Translations under genes and position numbers: made by a program
Notes under the pieces: generated by a model
What the model saw: the letters and a program-made list of their open reading frames with translations, nothing else
Database searches by the model: none
What the model was told of the DNA's origin: nothing
In this document: positions 19,088 through 44,095 of the stretch, piece by piece
Layout: each line of letters opens with the position of its first letter
How positions within the stretch are numbered: the stretch's first letter is position 1
DNA from: an uncultured Gammaproteobacteria bacterium
Lineage (GTDB): Bacteria > Pseudomonadota > Gammaproteobacteria > Arenicellales > JAANXG01
DNA: 64,000 nucleotides
Assembly (NCBI GenBank): GCA_947259705.1
Contig: CAMYNL010000002.1
Coordinates: 9,868 to 73,867 of the forward strand
Reading direction: 5' to 3'

Positions 19088-21676
19088 CTAAGCGGTTGCG
19101 GCGGCCACGGCGCGGCGGCGACCGCGCTGCAGCAAGGCGACCAACGCCAGCAACGCCAGCGCCGGGATGAACATGAGCTGCTTGGGCAGGCGTTCCGTCT
19201 TCACCTCGATGCCGAGTATCTGCCAGTCGAAGTCGAGGCCCGCCTTCTCGGCGGCGCTGCCGAACACCACGTTGTCGACGAAAACCTTGCCTTCCTCCTC
19301 GCGGGTCTCGAGGCCCGCCTCCTGCAGCCGCTGCGCGCCCGGACCGGCCGCGCCCATGGGCAGCATGACAGTCTTCTCCACCAGGTTGCCCTCCAGGGTC
19401 TCGCCCTTCACCGACACCCTCATCATGCCGTTCGGCCTGACCTTCTCCGCCATCTCCACCACCTGGCTGCCGGGCACGGTCTGCAGCGGCGGAAACAGCT
19501 CGTCCCACCAAAAGCCCGGGCGAAACAGGGTGAAGGCCACCAGCAGCAGCACCAGGGTCTCCCACCAGCGGCTCTTGACCAGGAAGAAGCCCTGGGTGGC
19601 GGCGGCGAACGTGAGCATGGCGACGACGGCGGCGCTCACCGTGACCAGCAGGTGGAACAAGCTCTCGATGCCGATCAGCAGCAGCTCGGTGTTGAAGATG
19701 AATATGAACGGCAGGATGGCGGTGCGGATGTCATAGGTGAAGCCCTGGATGCCGGTACGGATGGGGTCGCCGCCGGATATGGCGGCGGCGGCGAAGGCGG
19801 CCAGGCCAACCGGCGGCGTGTCGTCGGCCAGGATGCCGAAGTAGAACACGAACAGGTGCACCGCGATCAGCGGCACGATCAGCCCCGACTCCGCGCCCAG
19901 GGTGACGATCACCGGCGCCATCAGCGTCGATACCACGATGTAGTTGGCGGTGGTGGGCAGGCCCATGCCCAGGATCAGGCTGATGATGGCGGTGAACAGC
20001 AGCATCAGCACCAGGTTGCCGCCGGAGATGAACTCCACGAACTCGGTCATCACCAGCCCGATGCCGGTGAGGGTGACGGTGCCGACGACTATGCCGGCGG
20101 CGGCGGTGGCCACGCCGATGCCGATCATGTTGCGGCCCCCCGCGATCAGCCCGTCCAGCAGGTCCTGCAAGCCGTGGCGCAGCGCCGCGGCCATCTCGCC
20201 CTGCTTGCGCAGCACCACGAACAGGGGCCGCTGGGTGACGACGATGAAGGTCATGAACAGCGCGGCCCAGAAGGCCGACAGTCCCGGCGACAGCCGCTCC
20301 ACGACCAGGCACCACACCAGCACCACCACCGGCAGCAGAAAATACAGCCCGGCCTTGATGGTGGGCCCCGCCTCCGGCAGCTCGTCGATGCGGTGGTTGG
20401 TCTCCAGCTCCGGCACCGTCGCGGCGTAGGCCAGCAGGCCGACATAGGCGGCCACCAGCAGCGCGGTGGCGATCCAGGGGGTGGCATCGCCGGCCACGGT
20501 CTTGATCCAGCCCAGCCCGTAATAGACGATGCCCGACAGGATGATGAGACCGATCACGGTCATCAGGAACGACAACAGGCTTTGGGTCAGGGTGCGCTGG
20601 GTGCGTCTCGGCAGGCCCAGCAGATTGGCCTTGCAGGCCTCCAGGTGGACGATATAGACCAGGGCCACGTAGGAGATGATGGCCGGCAGGAAGGCATGCT
20701 TGATCACCTCCACATAGGAGATACCCACGTACTCCACCATCAGGAAGGCCGCCGCGCCCATGATGGGCGGCGTCAGCTGGCCGTTGGTGGAGGAGGCCAC
20801 CTCCACCGCACCGGCCTTCTCGGCCGGGAACCCCACCCGCATCATCAGCGGGATGGTGAAGGTGCCGGTGGTGACCACGTTGGCGATGGAGGAGCCCGAC
20901 ACCAGCCCGGTCATGCCCGAGGACACCACCGCCGCCTTGGCCGGGCCGCCGCGCATGTGGCCGAGCAGGGCAAAGGCGACGCGGATGAAATAGTTGCCGG
21001 CGCCGGCCTTTTCCAGCAGCGAGCCGAACAGCACGAACAGGAACACCATGGAGGTGGACACGCCAAGGGCGACGCCGTAGACGCCCTCGGTGCTGAGCCA
21101 GTAATGGGACATACCCTTGGACAGGCTGGCGCCCTTGTGGGCGATCACGTCGGGCATGTAGGGACCGGCGAAGGTATACAGGATGAAGACGCTGGCCACC
21201 ACCATCAGCGGCGGGCCCAGGGCGCGCCGGGTGGCCTCCAGCAGCAGCATCATGCCGATAACGCCCACGACCAGATCGAAGGTGGTGGGCAGGCCCGGCC
21301 GCTCCGCGAGTTCGCGGTAGAACAGGAACAGGTAACCGGCACAGAAGGCGCCGACCAGGGCGGTGACCCAGTCCTGCAGCGGGATGTAGTTGCGCGGCGA
21401 GCTCTTGAACGTCGGATAGGCGGTGTAGGCCAGGAAGATGGCGAACGCCAGGTGGATGGACCGCGCCTCGGTGTCGTTGAGCACGCCGAAACCGACCATG
21501 AATGGCAAGGGCGACGCGTACCAAAGCTGAAACAGGGACCACACCAGCGGGATGATCAGCAGCAGCTGGCCGGCGAAACCCGCCGGCGAGCGTGCGCCGG
21601 TGTCCGCCTCGGCGATCATCTCCTGCAGTTCGCTGTCGTCGCTCAGGCTTTCTTCTTGGGTGGGCTTGTCAGTCAT
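19088..21676 (-). CDS. TAXI-type TRAP transporter fused permease (4TM/12TM fusion) with C-terminal DUF3394-like extension
   Basis: About 862 aa polytopic protein. The ATG at 21676 (MTDKPTQEE...) is preferred over the ORF-track start. Its C-terminal 130 aa form a soluble-looking domain plus a final TM. It lies next to a TAXI binding protein. Confidence 0.85.
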   Translation of the reverse strand: MTDKPTQEESLSDDSELQEMIAEADTGARSPAGFAGQLLLIIPLVWSLFQLWYASPLPFMVGFGVLNDTEARSIHLAFAIFLAYTAYPTFKSSPRNYIPLQDWVTALVGAFCAGYLFLFYRELAERPGLPTTFDLVVGVIGMMLLLEATRRALGPPLMVVASVFILYTFAGPYMPDVIAHKGASLSKGMSHYWLSTEGVYGVALGVSTSMVFLFVLFGSLLEKAGAGNYFIRVAFALLGHMRGGPAKAAVVSSGMTGLVSGSSIANVVTTGTFTIPLMMRVGFPAEKAGAVEVASSTNGQLTPPIMGAAAFLMVEYVGISYVEVIKHAFLPAIISYVALVYIVHLEACKANLLGLPRRTQRTLTQSLLSFLMTVIGLIILSGIVYYGLGWIKTVAGDATPWIATALLVAAYVGLLAYAATVPELETNHRIDELPEAGPTIKAGLYFLLPVVVLVWCLVVERLSPGLSAFWAALFMTFIVVTQRPLFVVLRKQGEMAAALRHGLQDLLDGLIAGGRNMIGIGVATAAAGIVVGTVTLTGIGLVMTEFVEFISGGNLVLMLLFTAIISLILGMGLPTTANYIVVSTLMAPVIVTLGAESGLIVPLIAVHLFVFYFGILADDTPPVGLAAFAAAAISGGDPIRTGIQGFTYDIRTAILPFIFIFNTELLLIGIESLFHLLVTVSAAVVAMLTFAAATQGFFLVKSRWWETLVLLLVAFTLFRPGFWWDELFPPLQTVPGSQVVEMAEKVRPNGMMRVSVKGETLEGNLVEKTVMLPMGAAGPGAQRLQEAGLETREEEGKVFVDNVVFGSAAEKAGLDFDWQILGIEVKTERLPKQLMFIPALALLALVALLQRGRRRAVAAATA

Positions 21677-21918
21677 GGCGTGGCCACTCTTCCGGTGAAC
21701 GCGCCCGGAACGGGCGCCACCGCGCCAAGCCGGCATGCCGGCGACGGATGGAGCCGATCCAGGTCGAAGGTTGGTTGATATGCAGCGGGCGCCCGCGCCC
21801 GCATACACGCACCCGCCGGGCGGATCCTTGAGCCGGCGCGGTCGGGTTTCGCGATGCAAACATCGAATCACCGCTGCCGGGGGACGACGGCAGTCGTCCC
21901 CCGTCGCGATTCATCGAA

Positions 21919-22899
21919 CTACATCAGGCCTGCTTCCTTGTAGTACTTGGCGGCCCCGTCATGCAGCGGCGCCGACAAGCCATCCTTGATCATCTCTTTC
22001 TTGTCGAGATTCGCAAACGCCGGGTGCAGTTTCTTGAAATCGTCGAAGTTCTCGAACACCGACTTCACCACCACGTAGACGGTGTCGGCCGGGGTCTTGG
22101 TGGTGCTGACGAAGGTGGCGCCGACGCCGAAGGTGACGGTATCGCCGTCGTTGCCCATGTACATGCCGCCGGGGATGACGGCCTTGCGGTAGTAAGCGTT
22201 CTCACTCACCAGCTTGTCTATGGCGGGGCCATCCACCGCCACCAGCACGGTGTCGCAGGAGGTGGTGGCCTCCTTGATGGAACCGCTGGGGTGGCCGACC
22301 GTGAAAACGATGGCGTCGACCTTGTTGTCGCACAGCGCGGAGGCCTGCTCGGCGGACTTCAGCTCCGAGGCCAGCGAAAAATCGGACGTCTTCCAGCCCA
22401 GGGTGTTCATCACCACCTCCATGGTGCCGCGCTGCCCGGAGCCCGGGTTGCCCACATTGACCCGCTTGCCCTTGAGGTCGGAAAACTTCTTGATCCCTGC
22501 ATCGGCGCGCGCCAGTACCGTGAACGGCTCCGGATGCACCGAGAACACGGCACGCAGGTCCTTGTTGGCGCCCGCGTCCTGGAACTTGCTGGTGCCGTTG
22601 TAGGCATGATACTGCCAGTCGGACTGGGCCACGCCCATGTCCAGCTCACCGGTACGGATGGCGTTGAGGTTATAAACCGAGCCGCCGGTGCTCTCCACCG
22701 AACAGCGTACGCCGTGGTCTTTGCGGCCCTTGTTGACCAGGCGGCAGATGGCGCCGCCGGTGGGATAGTAGACCCCGGTCACGCCACCAGTACCGATGGT
22801 GATGAAGGTGTCCGCCGCTTGTACGCTGGGGGCGGAAAAAACCGCCATCGACCCGACCAGGGCAGCCACCAGCGGCATCTTGATCTTGTTATGCAACAT
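21919..22899 (-). CDS. TAXI family TRAP transporter solute-binding protein
   Basis: 326 aa with signal peptide and [26 protein letters not shown], the TAXI signature. Confidence 0.9.
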
Positions 22900-23082: not shown

Positions 23083-23670
23083 TCAGCCCCGGGAGGTGAG
23101 TGCGGCAGGGGTATTCACATCCAGCAGAACACCCTCGTCGTCGCATTCCAGGCGCTGCAGCAGGGCCGCATCCCGCGCCACGATGTCGCGTGCGCCGCGA
23201 TCGCCGCTTAGCGTCAGCAATTCGTCGCGGTAAGCCGCCGAAAACGCCACCGGGTTTCCGCGGCGACCATGATGGCAGGGTGCCGCCAGGGCCGCACCCT
23301 GCCGCAGGCTATCGCGCAGCATGGCGACGGTTTGCGCCCGCACCCAGGGCATGTCGGCCAGCGCGATGATCCAGCCCGCGGCCTGCCTGCTGGCCTGCAC
23401 ACCGCAGGCGATACTGTGCCCCATCCCCTGGTCCGCCGCCGCACAGGGACACAGCGTCACGCCGACGGATGCATCACCGAGCGCTTCCTTCAACAGCTCG
23501 ATCAGTTGCCGCTGCCGCGGCCGCACCACCACCGTTACTGCCTCCAGTTCCGCGGTCAGCGCCGCCAACGACGCCAGGACCATGGGTCGTCCGTCAGCCA
23601 GCGATGCGAGCAATTTGTCGCCGCCGAAGCGGGCGCCGCGGCCCGCCGCCAGCAGCACGCCGCTGATCAC
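23083..23670 (-). CDS. MobA-like nucleotidyltransferase (molybdenum cofactor cytidylyltransferase MocA-like)
   Basis: 195 aa with the N-terminal NTP-transferase motif GVLLAAGRGARFGGDKLL. Its start overlaps the XdhC stop. Confidence 0.75.
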   Translation of the reverse strand: MISGVLLAAGRGARFGGDKLLASLADGRPMVLASLAALTAELEAVTVVVRPRQRQLIELLKEALGDASVGVTLCPCAAADQGMGHSIACGVQASRQAAGWIIALADMPWVRAQTVAMLRDSLRQGAALAAPCHHGRRGNPVAFSAAYRDELLTLSGDRGARDIVARDAALLQRLECDDEGVLLDVNTPAALTSRG

Positions 23671-24653
23671 GCCGGCCCGGCTCCGTCGACCTCCGCCGAC
23701 GTCGATGCCGCGGCCCCGGGGCGGTGGCGGGCCGCGGTGATGGCGGCCATGATGGAGACCGCGATCTCGGGTGGCGAGCGGCCGCCGAGGGGAAGGCCCA
23801 CCGGGCTTTGCAGCCGCGCCAGCTCGGCCTCGTCGAGGCCGAAGTGCCGGCGCAGGCGGTCGAGCCGCTTGGCGCTGTTGCCCCGCGAGGCCAGTGCGCC
23901 GACATAAAAAGCAGGTGAACGCAGTGCCTCCATCAACGCCAGGTCATCCAGGTTGGGTTCATGACTGAGGGCCAGCACCGCGGTCCGGCGGTCCGGCTGC
24001 AGGGTCGCCACCACCTCGTCCGGCGAGTCGGCCAGCAGGGTGACCGATTGGTCCTGCCAGTTCTGCCGGTAGCTGGCGCGCGACTCGCAGACCATGACCT
24101 GGTAACCCAGCATGCCCGCCATCGCCGCCACGTAGCCGGTGAGCTGGTTGGCGCCGATCACCAGGATCCGCCAGCGCGGCCCGAAGACCTGGACCAGCTG
24201 CTCGTCGTTACAGTTCATGTCCTCGTCACGGCCCGCCGGCTCGCAGTGCGCGCTGCCGGTGCGCAGGTCCAGGCAGCGCCGCACCACCCGCCGCTGGGTC
24301 AGCGCATCAACCGCCGCCTGCAGCGTATCCACGGCTTGCACCGGCTCCACCACCAGCTCGATGGTGCCGCCGCAGGGGAGCCCGAAGCGCGCCATCTGCT
24401 CGGCCTCGACACCGATGCTGACGCGCTCCGGCACGGCGGGGGCGGTGTCGTTGATGCGGTCGGTCAGCTCCTTCTCGATGCAACCTCCCGACACCGACCC
24501 GACGAAACGGCCGTCGTCACACACGGCCATCATGGCGCCCGGGGGCCGTGGGGAAGAGCCGAACGTCGCCACCACGGTGACCAGGTAGACGCGCCGCTGC
24601 GCGCGCATCCAGGCCAGCGCGGCATCGAGGACCTCGATCTCGACACCCTGCAT
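23667..24653 (-). CDS. XdhC/CoxI family molybdoenzyme maturation factor
   Basis: 328 aa. VYLVTVVATFGSSPRPPGAMMAV...GSVSGGCIE is followed by a Rossmann-like ILVIGANQLTGYVAAMAG. Confidence 0.8.
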   Translation of the reverse strand: MQGVEIEVLDAALAWMRAQRRVYLVTVVATFGSSPRPPGAMMAVCDDGRFVGSVSGGCIEKELTDRINDTAPAVPERVSIGVEAEQMARFGLPCGGTIELVVEPVQAVDTLQAAVDALTQRRVVRRCLDLRTGSAHCEPAGRDEDMNCNDEQLVQVFGPRWRILVIGANQLTGYVAAMAGMLGYQVMVCESRASYRQNWQDQSVTLLADSPDEVVATLQPDRRTAVLALSHEPNLDDLALMEALRSPAFYVGALASRGNSAKRLDRLRRHFGLDEAELARLQSPVGLPLGGRSPPEIAVSIMAAITAARHRPGAAASTSAEVDGAGPA

Positions 24654-24872: not shown

Positions 24873-25427
24873 CTACTGCCCGAGCAGGCGCAGAAAGGGG
24901 CCGGCTTCGGGATGGTTCTGGGCGGCGGCCTTGCGCAGCCACCGCGCGGCCTGCTCGAGGTCCGCGGCGGTCGCCTTCTCGGGCCCGGCGCCGTAGGCGG
25001 TCGCCAGCATCACGCCCAGGTTGAACTGGGCGTCCTTGTCGCCCTGCTCGGCGGCCTTGCGGAACCAGTCGGCGGCGGTCCGGTTGTCGCGCGCCACGCC
25101 CAGGCCCTTCTCGTAGGCCAGGCCCAGGTTGAGCTGGGCCACCGGGTCCCCGAGCTCCGCCGCCTTGCGCAGCCACTCGGCCGCCTTGGCCCGGTCCTGC
25201 GCCACGCCCTGCCCCTGCTCATACATATTGGCCAGGTTATTCATGGCGGTGGTGTTGCCGCGTTCGGCCAGCGACAGCCACAACTCGCGGGCCTGTTCGT
25301 AATCGCCCGCCTTGTAGACGGCGTAGGCCTTGAGCGACTCCACGGCCTCGCTGCTGCTGCGGTCGGGGCCCGCATGCACGGTCCCCAGCAGCAGCCAAGA
25401 CAGACAGAAAAACAGTACTCGCATCAC
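24873..25427 (-). CDS. Sel1-repeat (TPR-like) periplasmic protein
   Basis: 184 aa with signal peptide and repeated units A..NL(A/G).(M/A)Y..G.GV..D...A..W(L/F)RKAAE.G. Confidence 0.8.
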   Translation of the reverse strand: MMRVLFFCLSWLLLGTVHAGPDRSSSEAVESLKAYAVYKAGDYEQARELWLSLAERGNTTAMNNLANMYEQGQGVAQDRAKAAEWLRKAAELGDPVAQLNLGLAYEKGLGVARDNRTAADWFRKAAEQGDKDAQFNLGVMLATAYGAGPEKATAADLEQAARWLRKAAAQNHPEAGPFLRLLGQ

Positions 25428-25445
25428 ATCCTCCTCGATCCTCGC

Positions 25446-26000
25446 TCAGGGTGTTCCGGCATCGCCGATGGGCACCGGGGTTGCTTCCACCACTGGCTGA
25501 CCGTGTTGCTCCCACTCGTCGGTGCCGCCGCGGTACCAGTAGAGGTTACGATAGCCGTAGGCCGCCGCCCGCTGCACCGCGTTCCATGACATCCAGCAGT
25601 CCAGCACACAATAAAACACCACGGCGCGTCCCGGGTCGCCGGCGGTCAACTGCCGCAGGCTATCACGAAAGTATCGCTCCATCCTTGGTTCCAGCTCACC
25701 GAAGCCGACGTTGGGAAGCCAGGCGCTGCCGGCGATGTGATAGCGCACCGTGGCCGGCAGCCACTCCATGCCGAACTCCCGGGTCTCGGGCCTGACCACC
25801 ACCGGCTGCACATCGATCAGCACCGGGTCGGCATCGCGCATCAGGGACAACAGCTGCCCGGTGCCGAGGGTTTGCGCATGGGGTACGGTCAGCGGCGTGG
25901 GAGCGCGGTAGCGCTCCATGCGCAGGCCCTGCGGTCCGATGTGTTCCAACGCAGCGGGGTCGGCCGGCGCCGCCGGCGGGTACGCCAGCCAGCAGGCCAT
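25446..26000 (-). CDS. PQQ-dependent catabolism-associated CXXCW-motif (rhodanese-like) protein
   Basis: VVFYCVLDCWMSWNAVQRAAAYGYRNLYWYRGGTDEW carries the C-x-x-C-W motif. The start is uncertain because a signal-peptide-like in-frame extension runs upstream without an ATG/GTG/TTG start. Confidence 0.75.
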   Translation of the reverse strand: MACWLAYPPAAPADPAALEHIGPQGLRMERYRAPTPLTVPHAQTLGTGQLLSLMRDADPVLIDVQPVVVRPETREFGMEWLPATVRYHIAGSAWLPNVGFGELEPRMERYFRDSLRQLTAGDPGRAVVFYCVLDCWMSWNAVQRAAAYGYRNLYWYRGGTDEWEQHGQPVVEATPVPIGDAGTP

Positions 26001-26050
26001 TGCCGGCCACAGGCATCGTGCCAGGCGGGCGGTCGCCGCGGCCGATGGTA

Positions 26051-26992
26051 TCAGTTGGACACCCGCGGCAGCTCGCGCCGCTCGCGCTGAGGATAAAGAT
26101 GGCTCACGGAGCGATGAAACTCCGCCGGCATCACGCTCAAGGCATCGAATTCGCCGGGCAAGGGTGTGTAGAGCAATTCGGCCATGTCCACGCCGCTTCG
26201 CGCCGCGGTGTTCAGGGTCTGTTCCAGCCAGTCCAGGTAGCCGCGGGTCTGCATGACCGGGTGCAGGTCCCGGGTCACCGGTCCATGGCCCGGTACCAGT
26301 ACCTCGACCGGCAAGGCCTGGATACGCCGCAACGATCGCAGCCAGATATCCAGCTCCGCATGGGGGGTGGTGGGCGCGCGGTCGTGGAACACCAGGTCGC
26401 CGGCGAACAGGACCCCGGTGGCGTGGTCCAGCAGCATCAGGTCGTCCGGGGTATGACCGCCACCGGCGATCACCTGCAGGCGACGGCTGCCGAAGCTCAG
26501 TTCGCCCTCGTCAATGGCCTCGTCCGGCCGCACGGCTTCGGTACCGCGCATCCAGCTGCCCGCCAGGCGGTACATGTTGTCGGTGAAGGCATTGGCCTGG
26601 CTGCGTATGCCGTCAATGGTGCCGGCCAGCGCCAGGATCGGCACGTCGTCGTAGGCCTGGTTGCCGAGGAAGTGGTCGGGATGCATGTGAGTGATAAAAA
26701 CGCGGATGACGGGCAGGTCCGTGACCTTGGTGATGGCGGCGCGCATCTGTTCGCCATACAGCCGCGAGGGACCCGAGTCGATAACCACCACCCCGACCTC
26801 GGTGACGATGAAACCGGTGTTGACGATATTGCCGCCGTTGTCGAAGGAGAAGTCCTCATTGGCCCCCTGGAAAACGTAGGTGTCGGCGGCCACCTTGACC
26901 GGCTGCAGCCCATAGTCGAGATCCGCGGCGGCGGCGCTCCACGCCGAAAACATCGCCAGCAGCGCCAGCGCGAGTCTAAGGTGCCACCGCAT
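26051..26992 (-). CDS. quinoprotein relay system zinc metallohydrolase (MBL fold)
   Basis: 313 aa with signal peptide and the metallo-beta-lactamase motif ITHMHPDHFLGN (HxHxDH). Confidence 0.8.
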   Translation of the reverse strand: MRWHLRLALALLAMFSAWSAAAADLDYGLQPVKVAADTYVFQGANEDFSFDNGGNIVNTGFIVTEVGVVVIDSGPSRLYGEQMRAAITKVTDLPVIRVFITHMHPDHFLGNQAYDDVPILALAGTIDGIRSQANAFTDNMYRLAGSWMRGTEAVRPDEAIDEGELSFGSRRLQVIAGGGHTPDDLMLLDHATGVLFAGDLVFHDRAPTTPHAELDIWLRSLRRIQALPVEVLVPGHGPVTRDLHPVMQTRGYLDWLEQTLNTAARSGVDMAELLYTPLPGEFDALSVMPAEFHRSVSHLYPQRERRELPRVSN

Positions 26993-27810
26993 CAGCGCGC
27001 GGCGCCGCTGGCGGCCTTGCCCGCTGCGGCCGGCGGCGGAACGCTGGCGCGAAATCGATTACCGTTGTTGTCGCGGCCGCGGATCTGCACCGCGCCGCGG
27101 CCGGGCAGGTCGAGCGTGAACACTGGATTTTCCGACACCGGTTCGAAAGGCCTGATCTCCGCCAGCAGCTGGTCCTGGTCCCTGATCTCGATGTTTTCGA
27201 CGTGGAACACCGGGATGCCACTCGCCAGTCCCGTGTCCATGGGGTGGATGACATCGAAGCGTAGCCGACTTTGTTCCGCGCCGCGGTCCCACAGCCGGCC
27301 ATGTACCTGCCCCAGGCGCGCCACCCAGTCGGCGCCGCCGCTGCCCACGCTTGGCGCAGTGCAGCCGCCACCGGCGGCGTCCACCCACACGCCCCCCACG
27401 TGCCACACCTTGTCGTCAGCGGTGAGTACCGCCGCCCGGATCGGCGTGGATTGCTGCAACTTGACCCGAAAGCCGATGCGGGCGCGCGACTCCCGGGGAT
27501 AGAACTCCAACACCTTGGGCAGCGGATTCAGGTCCGCGATCACCAGGATCTTTTCGACCCGCCCCAGCGCACCGGCGTCCACCAGCACCGGCACCTCCAG
27601 GGAGTTCTCCGCGGCCTGCGGCGCCAGCACCAACACCCGGTTGTCGAACACCACCGGCCGGCCGGCCAGGTAAAGACCGTACATGTTTTCCCACTGCACC
27701 GAACGCAACGGATCGGCGGGCGGTGCTTCACCGGCCACCCCCCCGGTCGCCGAAAGCAGTGCCGCCGCCAGCAGCGGGGCCCGGATGGCAATACTCGAGA
27801 AGATCTTCAT
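26992..27810 (-). CDS. quinoprotein dehydrogenase-associated SoxYZ-like carrier
   Basis: 272 aa from the ATG at 27810 (MKIFSS...). A SoxY-like half ends in VDAAGGGC (Cys codon 27361-27363), followed by a SoxZ-like half. Confidence 0.7.
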   Translation of the reverse strand: MKIFSSIAIRAPLLAAALLSATGGVAGEAPPADPLRSVQWENMYGLYLAGRPVVFDNRVLVLAPQAAENSLEVPVLVDAGALGRVEKILVIADLNPLPKVLEFYPRESRARIGFRVKLQQSTPIRAAVLTADDKVWHVGGVWVDAAGGGCTAPSVGSGGADWVARLGQVHGRLWDRGAEQSRLRFDVIHPMDTGLASGIPVFHVENIEIRDQDQLLAEIRPFEPVSENPVFTLDLPGRGAVQIRGRDNNGNRFRASVPPPAAAGKAASGAAR

Positions 27811-27844
27811 CACCTTACTTAGACGCGCTAGAGCACGATAGTTG

Positions 27845-28399
27845 CTAGCGGATGCTGATGCGCCGCGGCCAGTGCCGGTCGCTGGCGGGATAGAGCTCGG
27901 CACGCTTGATGGGCCGCAGGTCGCCGTCTTCGGGCGGCGACGCCAGCACGTTGAGGTCGGTCTCGCGCAGCTCGCCCTCGAACCCGTCCGCGGTCATGCG
28001 CAGCGCGAAATAAAGCCCGTTCCAGGCGTTGATGCCGTACTCCTCCGGGGTCTTGTGCAGGAACAACAGGTCGTATTCCAGGTCGGTAAGGTCGGCGGGG
28101 GTGACGAGGCGTTGGTTCTCATAGGGATACGGCAAGTGGCAGATCACCTGGGCCGGGTGCGGCAGGCACTTGAACGGTCGCATGGACAGGAACTGGTCCT
28201 CGAACCTGCTTTCGTCGAGCCGCACCTGGAAACGGTAGCCGTCGCCTTCGGGCGTCAGCATCACCCGGCCCAGCTCGATCGGCTCGCCTTGTTCCGGATG
28301 CAGGCGGATGGTGAGTTCCGGGCCCAGGGCCGCGGCGCCGGCGACCGCCGTGGGCAGCAGCAGGCAGGCCGCAAGCAGTGTCTGTCGGACGATGCTCAT
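27845..28399 (-). CDS. hypothetical periplasmic protein embedded in the quinoprotein operon
   Basis: 184 aa with signal peptide MSIVRQTLLAACLLLPTAVAGAAA. I recognise no motif. It is tightly spaced with its neighbours. Confidence 0.6.
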   Translation of the reverse strand: MSIVRQTLLAACLLLPTAVAGAAALGPELTIRLHPEQGEPIELGRVMLTPEGDGYRFQVRLDESRFEDQFLSMRPFKCLPHPAQVICHLPYPYENQRLVTPADLTDLEYDLLFLHKTPEEYGINAWNGLYFALRMTADGFEGELRETDLNVLASPPEDGDLRPIKRAELYPASDRHWPRRISIR

Positions 28400-28420
28400 G
28401 TCGCTGCGGATCCGCCGCCA

Positions 28421-29284
28421 TCAACCGCCGGCGCGGCGCAACCGGCTCGGGGTTTGATAGGTCGTGCCGAAACGCTGAAAGATGCGCTCCAGCTCGCCTT
28501 CGGCCTGCAATGCGGCAACCGCTTCCTCCACCGCCACGGCCAGGTCGCCGTGGTCGGCCTTGACCGCGGCGCCCACATCCCAGCCGGACTGGCGCAGCCC
28601 GGGCATCTGGATCGGGCCGAGGCGGTAGTTCGCCGCTTGGTCGCCGAGCGCCGCCTGCAACTCCGCGCGCGGCGCCATCACCCCGGCCAGTTCGCCCTGC
28701 TTGAGGGCCCTGGCGGCCTCCGCAACACTGCGGAAATGGACCACGTTGTCGCGGATCTGGCCGTTGTAGGCGCTGAGCAGATAGAGATCCGCCAGCGTAT
28801 CCAGTTCCACTCCCACCTTCTCGCGGGTGAACACGTCCAGCGCCAGCTCACGGTCGCCGAACCCGGGGTCCAGGGCCACCACGATCTGCTCCCGATAGTA
28901 GGGAGCGATCAGCCGCACGCGGTCGTTCCCGCGAGCGAATTCCGGATCATAGGGGACGTGCAGCATGACGTCGGCCACCACGCCGCCGAGGTAATGGCCC
29001 TTCCAAACGTAGATGCGCAGATCATCCTCCATGGTCTCGTCCGGCGGTACCAGCCGCACGGACGCGGAGACGCCCAGTTTCTCGGCAATCAGTTTCGCGA
29101 GTTCCACGTCGATGCCGGTCGAGCGCCCGCCCTGCTCGTAGGAAAACGGCGGGAAGTCGTGGTAGAGGGCCACATCCAGCACCCCCTTGTCGCGCACCTT
29201 GGCAAGCCCGGTGACGTCCTGGGCCATGCTGACGCCCAGCCACCACAGCAGGACCGCGGCGGCGGCCGGTTTCAGGTATTTCAA
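28421..29284 (-). CDS. quinoprotein dehydrogenase-associated periplasmic binding protein (MoxJ/XoxJ-like, family-3 SBP)
   Basis: 287 aa with signal peptide and an SBP_bac_3-like sequence (VLDVALYHDFPPFSY...). Lies next to the cytochrome c and PQQ dehydrogenase genes. Confidence 0.8.
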   Translation of the reverse strand: MKYLKPAAAAVLLWWLGVSMAQDVTGLAKVRDKGVLDVALYHDFPPFSYEQGGRSTGIDVELAKLIAEKLGVSASVRLVPPDETMEDDLRIYVWKGHYLGGVVADVMLHVPYDPEFARGNDRVRLIAPYYREQIVVALDPGFGDRELALDVFTREKVGVELDTLADLYLLSAYNGQIRDNVVHFRSVAEAARALKQGELAGVMAPRAELQAALGDQAANYRLGPIQMPGLRQSGWDVGAAVKADHGDLAVAVEEAVAALQAEGELERIFQRFGTTYQTPSRLRRAGG

Positions 29285-29312
29285 GGAGTCGGCCCTCCTG
29301 CGGCGTCGCTGG

Positions 29313-29738
29313 TCATTCCTCGACGTGCTTGGTCTCCAGCCAGGCGCGGATCGCCCACAGGGCCTCCTGGCTGAGGATACCCTCGAACTTGGGCATGTAG
29401 GTCACGCCGTTGCGGATGGCGCCGTTGCGCGCGCGGTAGATGAACCATTCATCACCCTCGTCCTCGACCGGAAGCAGGCGAAGGTCCGGCGCAATGCCGC
29501 CCGACATGCCTCCCAGTCCGTGGCAACGGGCACAGTTCTGGTTGTACGCCGAGGACCCGAGTTCAATGGCGTCCGCATTGCCGCGGTAAGGATTCTTCTC
29601 CAGCCAATCCTCCCCGATCTGGGGAAGATGTGACGTATCGACCGCCTGCGGCTGCACGTCGCCATGACCCAACACCACCCCGGTCATGGCCGCCAGGGAA
29701 GCAACTCCCAGTAATCTGGTCAACATCGTTCTCGCCAT
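29313..29738 (-). CDS. c-type cytochrome, electron acceptor of the PQQ dehydrogenase (PedF/XoxG/c550-like)
   Basis: 141 aa with signal peptide and a single haem site CARCHG. The C-terminus MPKFEGILSQEALWAIRAWLE is typical of this group. Confidence 0.85.
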   Translation of the reverse strand: MARTMLTRLLGVASLAAMTGVVLGHGDVQPQAVDTSHLPQIGEDWLEKNPYRGNADAIELGSSAYNQNCARCHGLGGMSGGIAPDLRLLPVEDEGDEWFIYRARNGAIRNGVTYMPKFEGILSQEALWAIRAWLETKHVEE

Positions 29739-29881
29739 AACAAATCACCTCTGGATTCTATTAAATAGAAAGGCGGCATCCCTTCCTGTGGACCCTCGCT
29801 TGCCGGGCCCGTGTGATCATGCACCGAATCGTACGCCTGAGGAAACGACCGGGGACTTTCGGTCGATGGTCTCTCAAGCAA

Positions 29882-29949
29882 GAAAGACCGGCATCCAGCC
29901 GGTCTTTCCAACCATGCAGCGGTGCCGGGGATGCAGGCGTCCCCGGCAC
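29882..29949 (-). terminator. tandem stem-loops between the PQQ dehydrogenase and cytochrome c genes (attenuator or partial terminator)
   Basis: First hairpin: gtgccgggga / tccccggcac (29922-29949), a 10-bp stem. Second hairpin: gaaagaccggc / gccggtctttc (29882-29908), an 11-bp stem followed on the minus strand by ttgcttg. Confidence 0.5.
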
Positions 29950-29959
29950 TGAACGCTTA

Positions 29960-31705
29960 CTACGACGCGGGCAGCTTGAACACCCACAGCGACCCGCCCT
30001 GGTTCAGGTACTTGACCTTCTTGGCCACGTCTCCGCCCCACAGCGGCACCGCGCCGCCCCAGCCGGAGGGCACGGCGACATACTGTTCGCCGTCCATCTC
30101 CCAGGTGATGGGACAGCCGACCACGCCGGAGCCGGTCTGGAATTTCCACAATTCCTTGCCGGTCTTGGCGTCGAAGGCCTTGAGGTAGCCCTCCGGGGTT
30201 CCGGTGAACACCAGGCCGCCGCCGGTGGTCATGACGCCACCCCACAGCGGCGCGTTGTTCTTGTACTCCCAGACGATCTTGCCGCTGTTCGGGTCGATGG
30301 CGCGCAGGGCCCCGATATAGTCCTCGTTGAGCGGCTTGATGGTGAAGCCCGCACCCAGGTAGGCGGCGCCCTTCTTATAAGTCACCGGCTCGTTCCACAG
30401 GTCCATGCCCCACTCGTTGGCCGGCACGTAGAACAGATTGGTGTCCGGGCTGTAGGCCATCGGCATCCAGTTCTTGCCGCCCAGGAACGACGGGGCGACG
30501 AAGATGGTCTCGCCCTTCTTGCCGTCCGCGCTCTTGGTCGGATCGCCGGCACGCACCCCGGTCTCCATCGGACGCCCGGTCTTCAGGTCGATGCCCTTGG
30601 CCCAGTCGATCTGCTTGACGAAGGGGAAGGCGTTGACCAGCTTGCCGTTGGTGCGGTCGAGCACGTAGAAGAAACCGTTGCGGTCGGCGTGGCCGGCCAG
30701 CTTCTTGCCGCCCGAGTCGAACGACACCAGTTCGTTGACGCCGTCGTAGTCCCAGCCGTCATTCGGCGTGTACTGATAGTGCCACACGATCTTGCCGGTA
30801 TCCGGGTTGATCGCCACCGTGGAGGTGGAGTACAGGTTGTCGCCGGGACGGGTATGGGCGTTCCAGGGCGCCGGGTTGCCGGTGCCGTAGAAGATGAGGT
30901 TGGTGTCGGCGTCATAGGCACCGCCCAGCCAGGGGGCGGCGCCGCCGGTCTTCCACATGTCGCCCGGCCAGGTGGCGTTCACCTTGCCGGTGACGCCGTT
31001 TTCCTTGCCGTCCTTGGTGCCCATATGGCCCTCGACCGTGGGACGCACCCAAACCATTTTTCCGGTTTTGGCGTCGCGCGCCTCGACCCGGCCGACGATG
31101 CCGAACTCACCGCCGGACACGCCGGTGACCACCATGCCCTTGACGATGATCGGCGCGGCGGTGAAGGAGTATCCGGCCTTGAAGTCGTCGATCTTTTCCT
31201 TCCACACCACCTTGCCGGTGTCCTGGTTGAGAGCAACCAGCTGGGCGTCCAGGGTGCCGAAGATGACCAGGTCACCGTACAGAGCGGCGCCGCGGTTGAC
31301 GACATCGCAGCAGGGCAGGATGCCGTCCGGCAGGCGATGGTCGTACTGCCACAGTTCCTCGCCGGTCTTGGCGTCGATGGCGTACAGGCGCGAATAGGAA
31401 GCGGTCACGAACATGCGGCCGTCGTGGACCACGGGTTGTGCCTCCTGGCCGCGTTGCTTCTCGCCACCATACGAAAACACCCAGGCCGGCACCATGTTCT
31501 TGACGTTTTCGGTGTTGATCTTTTTCAGCGGGCTGTAGCGTTGCCCCTGCAGGCCCATGCCCCAGGTCACAACGTCACCGGTGGTCTTGGCGTCGTTGGC
31601 GATATCACTGTCGGACACCGCCGCCTGGGCGGGCGCCGCCAGCATCACCGTCAGCAGGGCGGTTGCCCCCGCGACACTGACCCCAGAAAGATAATTGTTA
31701 TTCAT
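29960..31705 (-). CDS. PQQ-dependent alcohol dehydrogenase, type I (ExaA/PedH-like), with lanthanide-type DYD motif
   Basis: 581 aa with signal peptide. It has the [12 protein letters not shown] block, the vicinal disulfide PCCDVVNRG, and [11 protein letters not shown] with the extra Asp (codon 30743-30745) characteristic of Ln-dependent enzymes. Confidence 0.9.
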
Positions 31706-31817: not shown

Positions 31818-31833
31818 AGCAATAATGGTGCCA
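31818..31833 (-). promoter_or_regulatory. sigma-54 promoter of the PQQ dehydrogenase operon
   Basis: The minus strand reads TGGCACCATTATTGCT, a perfect TGGCAC-N5-TTGC, about 113 nt upstream of the ATG at 31705. Confidence 0.7.
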
Positions 31834-32076
31834 GACGGAGGCTCGTGCTCTACCGGCGCGGCTCCAGCCCGCCCGGCTCCGCCGCCGACGGGCATCATTA
31901 CGCCGCAAGCCATTGTTTATACTTGATTAAAACTTCCAGGAGTAGATTTCCTTAGCGCGTTACTTTGATTTTCAGCATGCCGCGCCCCTGGTTTGCCGCC
32001 TGCCGTGACAGGCAGACCGGCTCGCCTTCTCCATGGACGCGACAACTGTATCAGATTTGTGACAGCTTTGCGGTCA

Positions 32077-33027
32077 TTACCAGGTGCCCAGGGCATCGAG
32101 CATCTGCTGCTTCTTGGTTTCGTAGTCCTCGTCGGTGATCAGGCCCTGTTCGCGCAACCGGTTCAGGGTGGTCAGGCCTTCCTCGAGTTCCTGCCAGCTG
32201 ATGCCCCGCCCGACCGGCGCCGGGGCGGCGGCGGGTGCGGCCGGTGCGGATGGGCGGATTGCTTCCTCACTACCCAGTATTTCCCTGAGTTCTTCACGCC
32301 TTCTGGCCATTTCTTCATTTTTGCGCGTTGTTGCCATCTGATCGAGAGCAGCCAGCGCTGTTCTTACATCAATTACCAGCCAGTCATCCCGTCGAGAACC
32401 ATTTATCTGCTTATTTTCTATTCCGACGACTTTCATGATGGTCTTATCAAATTCTTTAGATCTCTTTGTGCGACTACCGTGATCAAATTTGTAGTGGAGG
32501 ATTCCCACATTGGTGGGATCATAGGCCGCCTCAAAGGCTTCCTCCCTAAGCCGGTTGTAATCTCCAATGATGACATTAAGTTTATTGTCTTTGTTAAACG
32601 CCCGACCGGCCACAAAATACCGCGCGGGTTTAAGAATAACAAAACGATCGACGCTCTTTTGCAGGGCGAATATGATGTCCTGGTTCGGATTGGCGCTCCT
32701 GAGACCTTTGGCGAGATTTTGACCCAGCAGTTTCGCCTGCTCAGCGGTAAATACAGGTTTTAGTTCTTCCGCTGACTTGCTGTCATCCTTTCCTTGGATC
32801 TTCAACGCCTCCAGGACAGCGCTTATTTCCCGTGCGTTTAATGCGACAGGATGATCATTCCTGCCAAAGCTCGATTCATCCTGGTCGGCGTACTTGATAA
32901 ACTCATTAGCACTCGCTTTCCAAATTTCATCGTCATCGGCAGAAGCATGACCTGCAAAGACAATTGATGAAGAAAGTATTAGAAGTGAATAAAAAAAAGT
33001 GGCGAGTCGATTCTCTGACATGTTCAT
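32077..33027 (-). CDS. secreted hypothetical protein with C-terminal SHOCT domain
   Basis: 316 aa, AT-rich, with a signal peptide and an Ala/Pro linker. The C-terminal LTTLNRLREQGLITDEDYETKKQQMLDAL is a SHOCT-type motif. Confidence 0.65.
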   Translation of the reverse strand: MNMSENRLATFFYSLLILSSSIVFAGHASADDDEIWKASANEFIKYADQDESSFGRNDHPVALNAREISAVLEALKIQGKDDSKSAEELKPVFTAEQAKLLGQNLAKGLRSANPNQDIIFALQKSVDRFVILKPARYFVAGRAFNKDNKLNVIIGDYNRLREEAFEAAYDPTNVGILHYKFDHGSRTKRSKEFDKTIMKVVGIENKQINGSRRDDWLVIDVRTALAALDQMATTRKNEEMARRREELREILGSEEAIRPSAPAAPAAAPAPVGRGISWQELEEGLTTLNRLREQGLITDEDYETKKQQMLDALGTW

Positions 33028-34548
33028 TGTATAGAGGCTTAGTCAGCCATTATGGCGAAGTGGGCTACGATGAGTTCAGAGCGTAAAGTACCCGGCAATC
33101 TTACAACAAATATGCAGACGCCGACAGTGAGAGGATAACCCGCTAACTATGAATCCCGGCCGCAATGCTGTCCACCGCTTCGTACACCGTAATGTGAGCC
33201 GAATACAAGCCACGGGTGACGACCCTGGGCCCGATCTACGACCCCCAAGAAGCTAAACTCATCTAGATTCCCACAGAATATCCACGCGGGTGAAGCGCTC
33301 GACATGCGCATGCTACGTCGATTTTTTACTGCATGCCCTGCATTCGGCCCCAGCTGAATTCGGGGACGCATGTCTCACTGTCAAGCCCAGCCACAGGCAA
33401 GCGCAGAAGGGTAAAATGATCAGTTACCCACCCACACATTTATACACGAAACACCGCTCTAACGCTGGACTGACGGAGCAACACGCCACTCAATCCACGG
33501 ACGCCGCGCCGACCCTCTGATCTCACGCGGTCGCAGCGCGCCCATTCCGATGCCGAGCTGAACCCTGGCGTTGAACATCTCCTTCGAGCGCAATTTTTTG
33601 ATTTGGGCGCCTTCCTGTGCCAGCCTGTTTACTTACCGATCACTCGATACATCGTCCACGACTTTAATACTAATGATCATTTGGACAGATCCATAGCGCA
33701 CTAGCGGATCAGCTCGCGTAGTCGCGCGACGGCCCTGGCCGCCTCAAGGAGGCGAGAAACAAGCCTTCAATTGCCTGTATCGGGTTTTCAGGCGTTACTG
33801 ATTTCTGTTGTGGATGCGAAAAAGCTTTGCTTGCAATCGCGACTACTTGCCGGAGAATCGCGCACCTGCACGCGCCGATCTACACCGCCCGTCGCCCCAT
33901 CACCGTAATCGTGCGTTAAGCGTCGACGGCTAAACGCCATGTTCGGTATTTAGCTCCGCAGGTACCCCATCCCGTCGTTCTACATTCTCACCTCCCGGTT
34001 TGCTTTTTTCCCGTCTGGTGGGCCCGCTCAAGTCTCTGGCTGGAATCCCGTTTGCGCGATGAGGGTCGGTTCGCCCCCTGAGTAGGGTACAAACTCCGCT
34101 AACCGCAAAGCTCGGCCGGGCGCGTTTCATAATTCGCCGCGGTTCCGACCACCGGCCCAGGCCTTGTCCGGGTGACCAGACGGCTCCTGGTCTACTACCG
34201 CCCGTCGTCGGCCGTAACCGGCCCTATCGTTGATCATCCCTAAAATCAATGTTTTTGGTATGGATATTGCTTCAGTTAATTGTTGTGCTAGTGATACAAA
34301 GAGTGGCTAAGCGGGTTCTTGCCCATTGTGTAACGAGCCAACGCAGTAAAGGCGCGGTATTCGATTAGAGCCGAATACTTCGGAGCACAATGGTCCGCGA
34401 GGTCAGAGCAATTGGCAATGAGTTAATTGTTGCTTCTATGAGACGCTCTGTTGCATTATTGGCACACTGCTGTTTAGTCGCGCAAGTTCTTGGCTGGCGG
34501 ACAGCAGGCAATTGAAATTTTCCAATTTGCTTGTGGAGGGTAATTCGA

Positions 34549-35775
34549 ATGGTTAATAAAAAATCGTTAGCAGGAGTCTGCGTAGCCGCAGCGACGATGA
34601 TGATTCCTGTGGCGCAGGCAGCAGAACATGAGGCGAAATGGGGTATTTCGGGCTGGATCAACGAAGGCATCACCTACTACGACGACGGCGTAGACAGCGA
34701 CGTAGCTCAGCTCTCCGATAACGGTACCACTCTAGGCAGTCGGATTACGCTCAACGGTTCTTTCATGCCTGCTGAAACCAATCTGACCGCGGGATTTGAA
34801 GTGATTCTCGAAGTCTTTTCCGGGGACCCGTACTTCGCCAATGGGACTCCGGTTACTCCACTGCTCTTCTCCAACCAGGACAATATCAACACCGTCAATG
34901 GTGCCGATATCGGTGTACTGGGCAGCAGTGTGAACATTGGTGGCAACTGGGGCAAGTTCACCATTGGTCTGCAGAGCATGCCTACGGACAATATTGCCGT
35001 ACTCGCGGATCCCTCGGGGACCATATGGTCCGGCATCTCCCCCGTCTTCCGCGGAAACGGGTTCCTGATTCGGGGACTGGGGGCGGGCACAACCAATGCG
35101 CGTTGGGGCGATTTTCTTCAATGCCTCACCGTACCCGGGCTGGGTATCGGTTTGGACTGTAACGGTATCTATCGTAATGGCGTTCGTTACGACCTGCCTG
35201 CGTTTGGTAATTTCAGTGTCGCGGTTGGTTGGGCGAATGACAAGGTCTACGATATTGCAGCGAAATACAGCGGTGAACTTGGTGGTTTGACAAGCAATAT
35301 TCACGCTGGCTATGCAAAAAACAATGACGGCGGCACCAACGTTAACGCGAGTGAGTCTGACGTTTTTCAGATTCAATGGGGCCTGCTGCATCCCGGCACC
35401 GGACTGTTCGGCCTGGCCACCTATCAAAAGGAAAATTCCGATAACGCGACCCCGGGGTCGGGGGATAGTGGTGATGCCTGGTACTTCAAGGGCGGTATCA
35501 AGAAGAAATGGGCCGCCTTCGGGCCGACATCGCTTTACATCGAGTACGGTTTGTACAACGACCAGTACGGCTTGGCTAACGCTGATGGCGTGTCCGGTTC
35601 TGAGGTCGATCGTATTGGTTTGGCCGTCGATCAGGAGATCGGCAGCAGATTGCGGATCTACGGCAAATGGAAACGGCTCAGCCTAGACGTAGACGGTAAT
35701 GCCACGGCCCAGACCTTGTATGGTGGGGCCGAGGACTTGAACCTGTTTACGCTTGGCTTCGTTGTGTTCTACTAA
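34549..35775 (+). CDS. outer-membrane porin, paralog of 17326-18393
   Basis: SD GGAGGG lies 8 nt upstream of the ATG at 34549. The signal peptide MVNKKSLAGVCVAAATMMIPVAQA shares the (V/I)PVAQAA motif with the other porin, and both share D(N/D)GV(N/D)SD. It ends ...LGFVVFY. Confidence 0.8.
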   Translation: MVNKKSLAGVCVAAATMMIPVAQAAEHEAKWGISGWINEGITYYDDGVDSDVAQLSDNGTTLGSRITLNGSFMPAETNLTAGFEVILEVFSGDPYFANGTPVTPLLFSNQDNINTVNGADIGVLGSSVNIGGNWGKFTIGLQSMPTDNIAVLADPSGTIWSGISPVFRGNGFLIRGLGAGTTNARWGDFLQCLTVPGLGIGLDCNGIYRNGVRYDLPAFGNFSVAVGWANDKVYDIAAKYSGELGGLTSNIHAGYAKNNDGGTNVNASESDVFQIQWGLLHPGTGLFGLATYQKENSDNATPGSGDSGDAWYFKGGIKKKWAAFGPTSLYIEYGLYNDQYGLANADGVSGSEVDRIGLAVDQEIGSRLRIYGKWKRLSLDVDGNATAQTLYGGAEDLNLFTLGFVVFY

Positions 35776-35870
35776 GGAATCGTGCGTAGGCCAACGGGTT
35801 TGCTGCGGCCACCCTCGGACGACTGCAAACGGGGCTAACGCCAAACCTGGCCTGGCTAAAGCAATACGAA

Positions 35871-35900
35871 AACGGCGCCTTACCGGCGCCGTTTTTTTTC
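35871..35900 (+). terminator. rho-independent terminator of the second porin gene
   Basis: aacggcgcc-ttacc-ggcgccgtt followed by tttttt. Confidence 0.85.
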
Positions 35901-43448: not shown

Positions 43449-43461
43449 GTCGTGTACCTCC

Positions 43462-44079: not shown

Positions 44080-44095
44080 TGCAACTTGCGTGCCA
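44080..44095 (-). promoter_or_regulatory. sigma-54 promoter of the aor operon
   Basis: The minus strand reads TGGCACGCAAGTTGCA, a perfect TGGCACG-N4-TTGCA, about 100 nt upstream of the aorA ATG. Confidence 0.75.

Follow-up and report, generated by a model that had tools for sequence, protein, structure and literature searches.

A 'quinoprotein relay' gene block with an unnamed secreted protein family beside a PedH-type dehydrogenase gene in an uncultured gammaproteobacterium

We analysed a stretch of 64,000 nucleotides (hereafter the window) from an uncultured gammaproteobacterium of the order Arenicellales (GenBank assembly GCA_947259705.1, contig CAMYNL010000002.1, positions 9,868 to 73,867), concentrating on the genes that follow a pyrroloquinoline quinone (PQQ)-dependent alcohol dehydrogenase (ADH) gene. 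Eight closely packed open reading frames (ORFs) occupy 24873-31705 of the minus strand: the dehydrogenase gene and then a seven-gene block at 24873-29738, within which intergenic gaps range from -1 to 50 nt. Genes called independently on a metagenome contig of 99% identity are the same. A first-pass annotation, made from the letters alone, had described these seven genes as a 'quinoprotein relay' module; all seven ORFs are present on the minus strand where it had placed them, and its observation as a whole is confirmed and its interpretation supported. The module is of a known but uncharacterised kind, called 'quinoprotein relay' in NCBI family names, and is found here in a fuller form that adds a secreted protein of 184 residues, which we call U184, and a Sel1-repeat protein. 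Families were assigned by running NCBIfam models with their curated cut-offs, together with Pfam, on the eight proteins.

NCBIfam places three of the proteins (carrier, hydrolase and CXXCW protein) in families whose names rest solely on association with quinoprotein dehydrogenases, as the first reading had recognised. In the carrier, a SoxY domain (PF13501, residues 51-150) and a SoxZ domain (PF08770, residues 182-257) lie on one chain, which scores 202.3 bits on TIGR04557 against a cut-off of 140 and whose start at 27810 matches the JGI gene call. Cys150, the last residue of a GGGC motif (residues 147-150), is the sole cysteine of the 272-residue protein, and its codon stands exactly where a GGGC cysteine in a fused SoxY/SoxZ-like carrier had been predicted. 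A single cysteine in the mature protein is the rule among homologues (39 of 41), with an arm reading GGGC[TS] in 33 and KGACS in 8. The carrier falls below the cut-offs for true SoxY (TIGR04488, 41.8 against 125 bits) and true SoxZ (TIGR04490, 25.3 against 76 bits), and its cysteine is internal, in the linker between the Y and Z parts (GGGC-T), rather than in a C-terminal GGCGG.

The gene after the carrier encodes the metallo-beta-lactamase (MBL)-fold, SoxH-like zinc hydrolase that had been proposed: it scores 424.3 bits on TIGR04558 (cut-off 300), a model that NCBI labels a 'hypothetical equivalog', and 91 bits on PF00753. The protein, a putative hydrolase, contains HMHPDH, an H-x-H-x-D-H metal-binding motif. 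Its nearest solved relative is 8D2Z, followed by PqsE, glyoxalase-II thioesterases and B1 beta-lactamases; against NCBIfam it scores 58 bits for B1 beta-lactamases and 33 bits (3e-8) for glyoxalase II (TIGR03413).

For the third protein, the rhodanese-like family proposed earlier is borne out (TIGR03865, 180.8 bits against a cut-off of 128; PF00581), and the cysteine spacing is not: the motif is C131-V-L-D-C135-W, or C-x3-C-W, with three residues between the pair where the name CXXCW implies two. The form C-x-x-D-C-W runs through both clusters of CXXCW homologues, and its columns are invariant in their alignment. The annotated ATG at 26000 gives an N-terminus of only MACWLAYPPAAPA, without a signal peptide. 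Upstream of it the frame stays open and holds no ATG, GTG or TTG, and the N-termini of homologues are longer by 25-30 residues, which align to this upstream extension. The true start probably lies upstream of 26000; a CTG at 26054, which overlaps the hydrolase stop codon (C-TGA) and from which the predicted product has a plausible signal peptide, may serve as a non-canonical, translationally coupled start.

U184 has a Sec-type signal sequence and belongs to no characterised family that we could find, as the first-pass annotation had suspected. The query has no Pfam or NCBIfam match, a profile search of the PDB gave none, and comparing 35 family members with Pfam at E<=5 gave only scattered single matches. 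Its 467 homologues (E<=1e-3, clustered at 90% identity) are called 'hypothetical' where they are named and carry no Pfam domain, plasmid-borne copies bear the Prokaryotic Genome Annotation Pipeline (PGAP) label 'hypothetical protein', and our literature search found no paper describing the family. An exhaustive profile search of 1.84 billion representative proteins matched just 236 members, so the family appears compact and without detectable distant relatives. The structure prediction and structure search suggested at the outset yielded a confident, all-beta AlphaFold2 model (predicted local distance difference test score 89.4), for which Foldseek found nothing in the PDB below E=0.09. Comparison by hhalign with the carrier, CXXCW, MBL, solute-binding protein (SBP), PedF and Sel1 families and five other neighbour families stayed below 4% probability throughout, so U184 is not a divergent version of any of its partners.

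Within the family, Cys78 and Cys87 (C-x8-C) are present in all 191 full-length members, and the alignment shows the further motifs FLSMRPFxC, YPY, DLEYDLLF, YGINAWNG and PPE. The invariant residues include no conspicuous His- or carboxylate-rich metal motif. We considered and rejected a lipoprotein reading of LAAC at residues 9-12: the hydrophobic stretch that precedes the cysteine is not long enough, and family members do not conserve the motif. One homologue, on the Phaeobacter gallaeciensis plasmid pGal_A255 (L086, 10010-10285), is annotated as a 276-bp hypothetical gene; the match falls into two pieces in two strains (H19 and H20), possibly because of a frameshift or gene decay in this species.

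We scanned one genome for each GTDB species and found 367 places encoding U184, of which we examined the best 80; these were ordered by similarity to the query and are therefore a biased sample. Their hosts include Thiodiazotropha and other lucinid symbionts, Sedimenticolaceae, Chromatiales, Thiotrichaceae, Methylococcaceae, Hyphomicrobium, Filomicrobium, the roseobacters Ruegeria, Phaeobacter, Shimia and Thalassovita, Neptunomonas and others. Co-occurrence, which the first pass had proposed to count, was scored in the 49 loci flanked by 5 kb or more on either side, taking partners within 10 kb of U184: the dehydrogenase was found in 34, the SoxYZ-like carrier in 29, the MBL hydrolase in 25, the CXXCW protein in 20, PedA-type ATP-binding cassette (ABC) genes in 18 and SoxC in 5. 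At least one ped- or Sox-type partner was present in 48 of the 49, the exception being L076. The recurrence of this arrangement far exceeds what chance would give.

More than 20 other gammaproteobacterial loci among the 80 retrieved show the order ADH-PedF-SBP-U184-SoxYZ-MBL-CXXCW, and Alphaproteobacteria have the same genes in other orders. In Hyphomicrobium and Filomicrobium, an operon of a YVTN propeller, CXXCW and U184 lies opposite pedF-SBP-SoxYZ-MBL-ADH. Roseobacter U184 genes are divergent from the dehydrogenase gene, with Sel1, pedF, binding-protein and PedA1A2BC-type ABC genes nearby; in Neptunomonas U184 is divergent from PedA1-PedA2-PedB-PedC homologues, and in loci of Rhodospirillaceae/Magnetospiraceae type (L074, L036, L047) it adjoins PedA1A2BC-type transporter genes. 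Nine loci with PedA1A2BC-type clusters also hold, between the ABC ATPase and YVTN propeller genes, a protein of about 150 residues with no family assignment (cluster c26; for example 15134-15586 of L085, a Ruegeria plasmid). It sits roughly where P. putida has its CXXCW gene, and by hhalign it is related to neither the CXXCW family nor U184. A plasmid megablast with the block as query matched only the dehydrogenase gene.

The exhaustive profile search also turned up natural gene fusions, and the informative ones were all of a single type, with a CXXCW domain at the N-terminus and U184 at the C-terminus. Two came from that search (P0132, 384 residues; P0161, 382 residues), both with an N-terminal domain that matches TIGR03865, and a third is encoded in a Filomicrobium genome (L046:9281-10498). 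A further protein, P0172 (407 residues), joins a ClpX-like N-terminus to the C-terminal two-thirds of U184; it is probably an assembly or gene-call chimera and was set aside. In about ten Thiodiazotropha and Sedimenticolaceae loci (L006:12297-13340, L017:12267-13295, L008:6812-7978 and about seven more) the CXXCW protein carries a C-terminal extension of some 150 residues. We confirmed Thioredoxin_2 (PF13098) in the extension in two loci and read a C-P-F-C motif in three, which suggests that these proteins take part in thiol-disulfide chemistry.

A second genomic setting comes from eight loci in Thiotrichaceae and uncultured Gammaproteobacteria (L022-L028 and L032; about 7-10.5 kb of each), in which U184 is divergent from a carrier whose arm reads KGACSAPPPAS. 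We tested one such carrier, that of L026, which reaches 217 bits on TIGR04557. In six of the eight there is a neighbour from one BLAST cluster, whose tested member (also L026) scores 600 bits on the SoxC sulfite dehydrogenase model TIGR04555 (cut-off 420), and a cytochrome c and an ArsR-type regulator are usually present. None of the eight showed a PQQ dehydrogenase homologue within 10 kb. The carrier family and U184 thus seem to act in a clearly sulfur-oxidising setting as well, which strengthens the likeness to sulfur-carrier chemistry that the first-pass annotation had drawn. In L023 a beta-helix (NosD-like) protein stands where SoxC would be. Gene content, families, synteny, fusions and invariant cysteines are all read directly from these loci, and synteny, CXXCW fusions and SoxC context together tie U184 to cysteine-bearing partners.

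Table. Features of the dehydrogenase gene and the seven-gene block, in positions of the window.
Feature	Position	Strand	Basis or remark
Sigma-54-type promoter consensus TGGCACCATTATTGC (putative)	31819..31833	-	perfect consensus match
PedH-type PQQ alcohol dehydrogenase, 581 residues, lanthanide-type Asp signature	29960..31705	-	TIGR03075, 794 bits
GC-rich hairpin directly after the dehydrogenase stop codon	29922..29949	-	folding energy
Terminator-like stem-loop GACCGGC-TGGAT-GCCGGTC, then TTTCTTGCTT	29876..29904	-	stem reported at 29900-29886
Cytochrome c-550 PedF	29313..29738	-	TIGR04494, 206 bits
Family-3 periplasmic solute-binding protein, PedG position	28421..29284	-	PF00497 only
U184, 184-residue secreted protein	27845..28399	-	no Pfam or NCBIfam match
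Fused SoxY-SoxZ-like carrier	26992..27810	-	TIGR04557, PF13501, PF08770
Codon of carrier Cys150	27361..27363	-	Gly-rich arm AAGGGCTAPS
SoxH-like MBL-fold metallohydrolase, 'quinoprotein relay system zinc metallohydrolase 1'	26051..26992	-	TIGR04558, PF00753
CXXCW rhodanese-like protein	25446..26000	-	TIGR03865, PF00581
Secreted Sel1-repeat protein, last gene of the block	24873..25427	-	PF08238

The dehydrogenase belongs to the methanol/ethanol family of PQQ enzymes and is closest among solved sequences to 6ZCV/6ZCW, deposited as 'quinoprotein ethanol dehydrogenase' (E=4e-266) and presumably PedH of P. putida, with 1FLG and all XoxF/MxaF entries behind. It has a vicinal Cys132-Cys133 pair and the motif W-D-Y-D-G at residues 317-321. 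An extra Asp two residues past the catalytic Asp is the accepted signature of lanthanide-dependent enzymes, and by family, Cys-Cys pair and Asp residue the protein is, to judge from its sequence, of the lanthanide-dependent PedH type. The same features are nearly universal in the dehydrogenases that neighbour U184 homologues, W-D-[YF]-D-G occurring in 46 of 48 and the vicinal Cys-Cys pair in 47 of 48.

A perfect sigma-54 consensus, TGGCACCATTATTGC, lies 114 nt 5' of the dehydrogenase ATG and is a putative promoter; the whole window contains only three such matches. The other two are at 44081-44095 on the minus strand, upstream of the aldehyde-oxidoreductase genes, and at 44831-44845 on the plus strand, just within the 5' end of the longest ORF of the sigma-54 activator gene at 44807-46912. 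Across 46 related loci, a site with at most one mismatch was found 5' of the dehydrogenase in only seven; because ORF starts used in that comparison are imprecise, we make no claim about conservation of the promoter. A 45-nt window containing the hairpin that follows the dehydrogenase stop codon has a folding energy of -25.2 kcal/mol, and 12 related loci have hairpins of comparable strength after the dehydrogenase gene. The second stem-loop, which precedes TTTCTTGCTT, may attenuate read-through into the seven genes. We found no sigma-70-like or sigma-54-like site in the 221-nt gap between the dehydrogenase and PedF genes. The simplest reading is that the eight genes probably form one operon in which expression of the distal seven is attenuated.

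The calls of a cytochrome c and a Sel1-repeat protein made from the letters alone both hold above the curated cut-offs. PedF scores 206.1 bits on TIGR04494 (cut-off 122), has the heme-binding residues Cys69 and Cys72 of a single CXXCH site and a signal-like N-terminus, and is presumed to be the electron acceptor of the dehydrogenase. The Sel1 protein scores 107.9 bits on PF08238, against a gathering score of 30.7, over three matched stretches; its position is also filled in L002 and L066 (64-68% identity), and Sel1 genes are annotated in Ruegeria and Phaeobacter clusters too. The label 'MoxJ-like' for the binding protein is the claim we had to reject. At E<=0.01 in NCBIfam it matches neither the MoxJ model nor the quinoprotein-associated SBP model, which we take to be TIGR03870 and TIGR03871. 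The only NCBIfam matches are to generic amino-acid SBP models, each below its cut-off, and the relatives in the PDB are amino-acid-binding proteins, cyclohexadienyl dehydratases and MltF. The protein is equivalent to PedG/XoxJ in gene position only; a homologue lies within 10 kb of U184 in 33 of the 49 loci.

The surrounding region is an alcohol-catabolism island. It encodes an aldehyde ferredoxin oxidoreductase-family enzyme (41598-43595, minus strand), a PadH/AorC-like flavoprotein (40235-41497, minus strand), PqqB and PqqC (46999-48665, plus strand) and PqqE (51949-53205, plus strand), with an ExbB/MotA-like ORF (48718-49701) and unassigned ORFs between pqqC and pqqE. Directly downstream of the Sel1 gene are XdhC-type and MocA-type cofactor maturation genes (23083-24653, minus strand), the XdhC-related one matching best an aldehyde oxidoreductase maturation factor, below its cut-off; elsewhere, XdhC and MocA genes follow U184 in Filomicrobium L055, and a xanthine-dehydrogenase-family enzyme follows pedF-SBP on a Ruegeria plasmid. 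Downstream of the maturation genes lies a tripartite ATP-independent periplasmic (TRAP) transporter of the TRAP-associated extracytoplasmic immunogenic (TAXI) type (19088-22899, minus strand; binding protein 21919-22899, fused permease 19088-21871), possibly for uptake of the acid product. In Thiodiazotropha loci, homologues of the flavoprotein and sigma-54 regulator stand directly upstream of the dehydrogenase, whereas here a stretch of lower GC content at 32001-38000 (0.53-0.57 against about 0.65), which may be an insertion, separates them from it. That part of the window encodes a 316-residue protein (32077-33027; its counterpart on contig L081 has a weak SHOCT match) and, at 34531-35775, a porin-like ORF; at 37073-39469 on the minus strand lies a TonB-dependent receptor whose similarity to PqqU and siderophore receptors is weak.

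Accessory genes of this kind have been noticed before. A 2026 review of the ped cluster regards PP_2666 (rhodanese), PP_2677 (SoxYZ-like) and PP_2678 (SoxH-like) as poorly characterised and lists disulfide formation, cofactor stabilisation and protection of PQQ from sulfur nucleophiles as hypotheses for them (PMC12997753); its passages on the transporter describe PedA1A2BC as a lanthanide transporter. Methanol growth of Hyphomicrobium denitrificans is inhibited by thiosulfate, and PQQ protection from sulfur nucleophiles has been proposed (PMC12997753, PMC11237559), and the same ensemble was met in that species and set aside by Li et al. 2024 (PMC11582611). A 2024 description of the soxYZ-S2 locus of Thiodiazotropha lists a PQQ dehydrogenase, soxH, rhodanese and other genes of unknown function, with speculation about carbon metabolism or protection from thiosulfate (PMC11237559). 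Both the 2024 and the 2026 paper agree with the first-pass view that the function of these accessory genes is not established (PMC11237559, PMC12997753).

Our preferred reading, which we put forward as possible rather than probable, is a periplasmic cysteine thiol/persulfide relay that handles sulfur adducts and services the dehydrogenase. The seven genes would lie at the distal end of an operon driven by sigma-54, their expression probably attenuated, and PedF would take the electrons. The relay would be assembled from the remaining components, whose nearest characterised relatives belong to sulfur oxidation. Sulfur nucleophiles that would otherwise attack the strained Cys132-Cys133 disulfide or the electrophilic PQQ would instead end up as a covalent adduct (sulfane, sulfonate or thiosulfonate) on Cys150 at the carrier's swinging arm, from which the MBL hydrolase would remove it. 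The CXXCW protein and U184 would exchange thiol, disulfide or persulfide and so load or reset the carrier, assisted in other species by the fused thioredoxin domain, with the Sel1 protein as a possible scaffold. We infer from the genes each of these chemical steps, what the adduct is and which way transfer runs. Three things lead us to favour sulfur adducts: the occurrence next to SoxC, a Sox ancestry for each of the parts, and the effect of thiosulfate known from the literature.

Several points weigh against a sulfur-adduct relay. We know of no high sulfur-nucleophile settings for many hosts of relay clusters that lack U184 (P. putida, Azospirillum). No electron source of the DsbD or CcdA kind was identified among the block genes. 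The roseobacter U184 loci yielded no homologue of the carrier, MBL hydrolase or CXXCW protein; the partner of U184 need not be the carrier. The hydrolase is weakly similar to thioesterases (TIGR03413 at 3e-8; PqsE and YcbL-type chains), which suits equally well a different and somewhat doubtful scheme, in which the relay carries carbon: an aldehyde would form a thiohemiacetal with Cys150, the quinoprotein would oxidise it to a thioester with electrons passing to PedF, and the MBL hydrolase, acting like glyoxalase II, would release the acid. This would amount to periplasmic aldehyde oxidation independent of nicotinamide adenine dinucleotide (NAD), with CXXCW, U184 and thioredoxin merely keeping the carrier thiol reduced, and as chemistry the scheme is attractive. 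The layout of the block parallels Sox logic, with dehydrogenase, cytochrome c, carrier and hydrolase in one place, and the PQQ-binding XoxF homologue ThdT was reported to act on a thiol-bound substrate with SoxB and SoxCD (Pyne et al. 2018, cited in 10.1101/683490). However, the carrier family and U184 also stand beside SoxC where no dehydrogenase homologue was detected within 10 kb, the hydrolase scores higher against B1 beta-lactamases (58 bits) than against glyoxalase II (33 bits), and a cytoplasmic aldehyde oxidoreductase is already encoded in the window and in related loci. Transposon mutants of PP_2666, PP_2677 and PP_2678, assayed without rare earths, had minimal alcohol phenotypes (PMC12997753), which counts against a carbon relay and a sulfur relay alike. 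It is unlikely that the quinoprotein itself, besides acting on free alcohols, oxidises a thiohemiacetal or sulfur adduct bound to the carrier cysteine, for release by the MBL hydrolase, with U184 as a cysteine-transfer or adaptor protein of undescribed fold that loads or resets the carrier; were this true, it would be a protein-thiol-dependent, NAD-independent periplasmic oxidation pathway.

The genes might alternatively serve maturation or docking, through formation or repair of the disulfide, insertion of PQQ or a lanthanide, or U184 aiding the docking of dehydrogenase and cytochrome c, much as MxaD is reported to improve docking of methanol dehydrogenase with its cytochrome c. We think this improbable on balance. 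In its favour, the association is with lanthanide-type, Cys-Cys-bearing dehydrogenases, both contexts of U184 (dehydrogenase with PedF, SoxC with cytochrome c) are periplasmic dehydrogenase-cytochrome pairs, and U184 is divergent from the dehydrogenase in roseobacters, with carrier and MBL hydrolase undetected on the locus, and adjoins PedA1A2BC-type genes in Neptunomonas, L074, L036 and L047; the ped review also favours a role in maturation or redox control (PMC12997753). It leaves the single-cysteine swinging-arm carrier and the hydrolase unexplained, however, and calcium-type enzymes that have the same disulfide, among them ExaA of P. aeruginosa, do without these genes (PMC12997753). The invariant residues of U184 contain no conspicuous His/carboxylate metal motif, and its fusions to a rhodanese-like domain point to cysteine chemistry. 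That U184 and some neighbours share no function at all and are merely co-located, for instance as co-regulated periplasmic stress proteins, is very improbable: conserved operons can contain unrelated genes (PMC11237559), L076 is a locus without a partner (1 of 49) and a terminator-like hairpin stands between dehydrogenase and block, but the synteny spans Alpha- and Gammaproteobacteria in several gene orders, three CXXCW-U184 fusions exist and a partner is present in 48 of 49 loci.

PQQ- and lanthanide-dependent alcohol and methanol dehydrogenases are central to methylotrophy, the turnover of volatile organic compounds and rare-earth biology, and the Sox-like genes beside them carry names from association and no assigned function in the 2024 and 2026 papers. 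What is new here is U184 as a conserved, unnamed component of this long-standing annotation puzzle; nothing is overturned. The window holds the fullest form of the module, narrows the problem of the accessory genes to three or four small periplasmic proteins, and links carbon oxidation with sulfur chemistry in symbionts and marine bacteria.

Among known systems, ThdT of Advenella kashmirensis offers a precedent for a PQQ-binding dehydrogenase homologue working with Sox enzymes on a thiol-bound sulfur adduct: this XoxF homologue is reported to couple tetrathionate to glutathione, and SoxB and SoxCD to act on the product (Pyne et al. 2018, cited in 10.1101/683490). Its pathway uses free glutathione and an enzyme of the XoxF clade, whereas the block encodes a protein carrier and its enzyme is nearest PedH/ExaA; no link between ThdT and U184 is known. 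The canonical Sox system (SoxYZ, SoxB, SoxCD, SoxH, SoxS/SoxW) resembles the block in having a carrier with a cysteine on a swinging arm, a product-releasing hydrolase, a dehydrogenase passing electrons to a cytochrome c, and thiol-disulfide helpers. It differs in that the carrier here lies below the SoxY and SoxZ cut-offs and has an internal cysteine, and the adjacent enzyme is a PQQ alcohol dehydrogenase; SoxAX and SoxB are not among the family matches of the eight genes.

In P. putida KT2440, the ped cluster (pedE-pedF-pedG-PP_2677-PP_2678-pedH, with PP_2666) shares the PedH-type enzyme, PedF, binding protein, SoxYZ-like, SoxH-like and rhodanese genes. In contrast to the block described here, the review's gene table for it lists no U184-like gene, and a relay cluster lacking U184 is also seen in Azospirillum. 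The rhodanese gene follows the hydrolase here and lies within the pedA1A2BC transporter genes in P. putida; our block ends in a Sel1 gene and, unlike ped, was not seen to contain a second, calcium-type dehydrogenase. Also close is the Thiodiazotropha soxYZ-S2 locus (PMC11237559), in which many CXXCW proteins have the thioredoxin-like fusion that is missing here, the Sel1 gene being an addition of the present block. The paper that described it left the U184 position among genes of unknown function. Its gene set and order (ADH, accessory genes, soxYZ fusion, soxH, rhodanese) are essentially equal to ours, and loci L003-L021 have the order ADH-PedF-SBP-U184-SoxYZ-MBL-CXXCW as here, with U184 identities of 54-65%.

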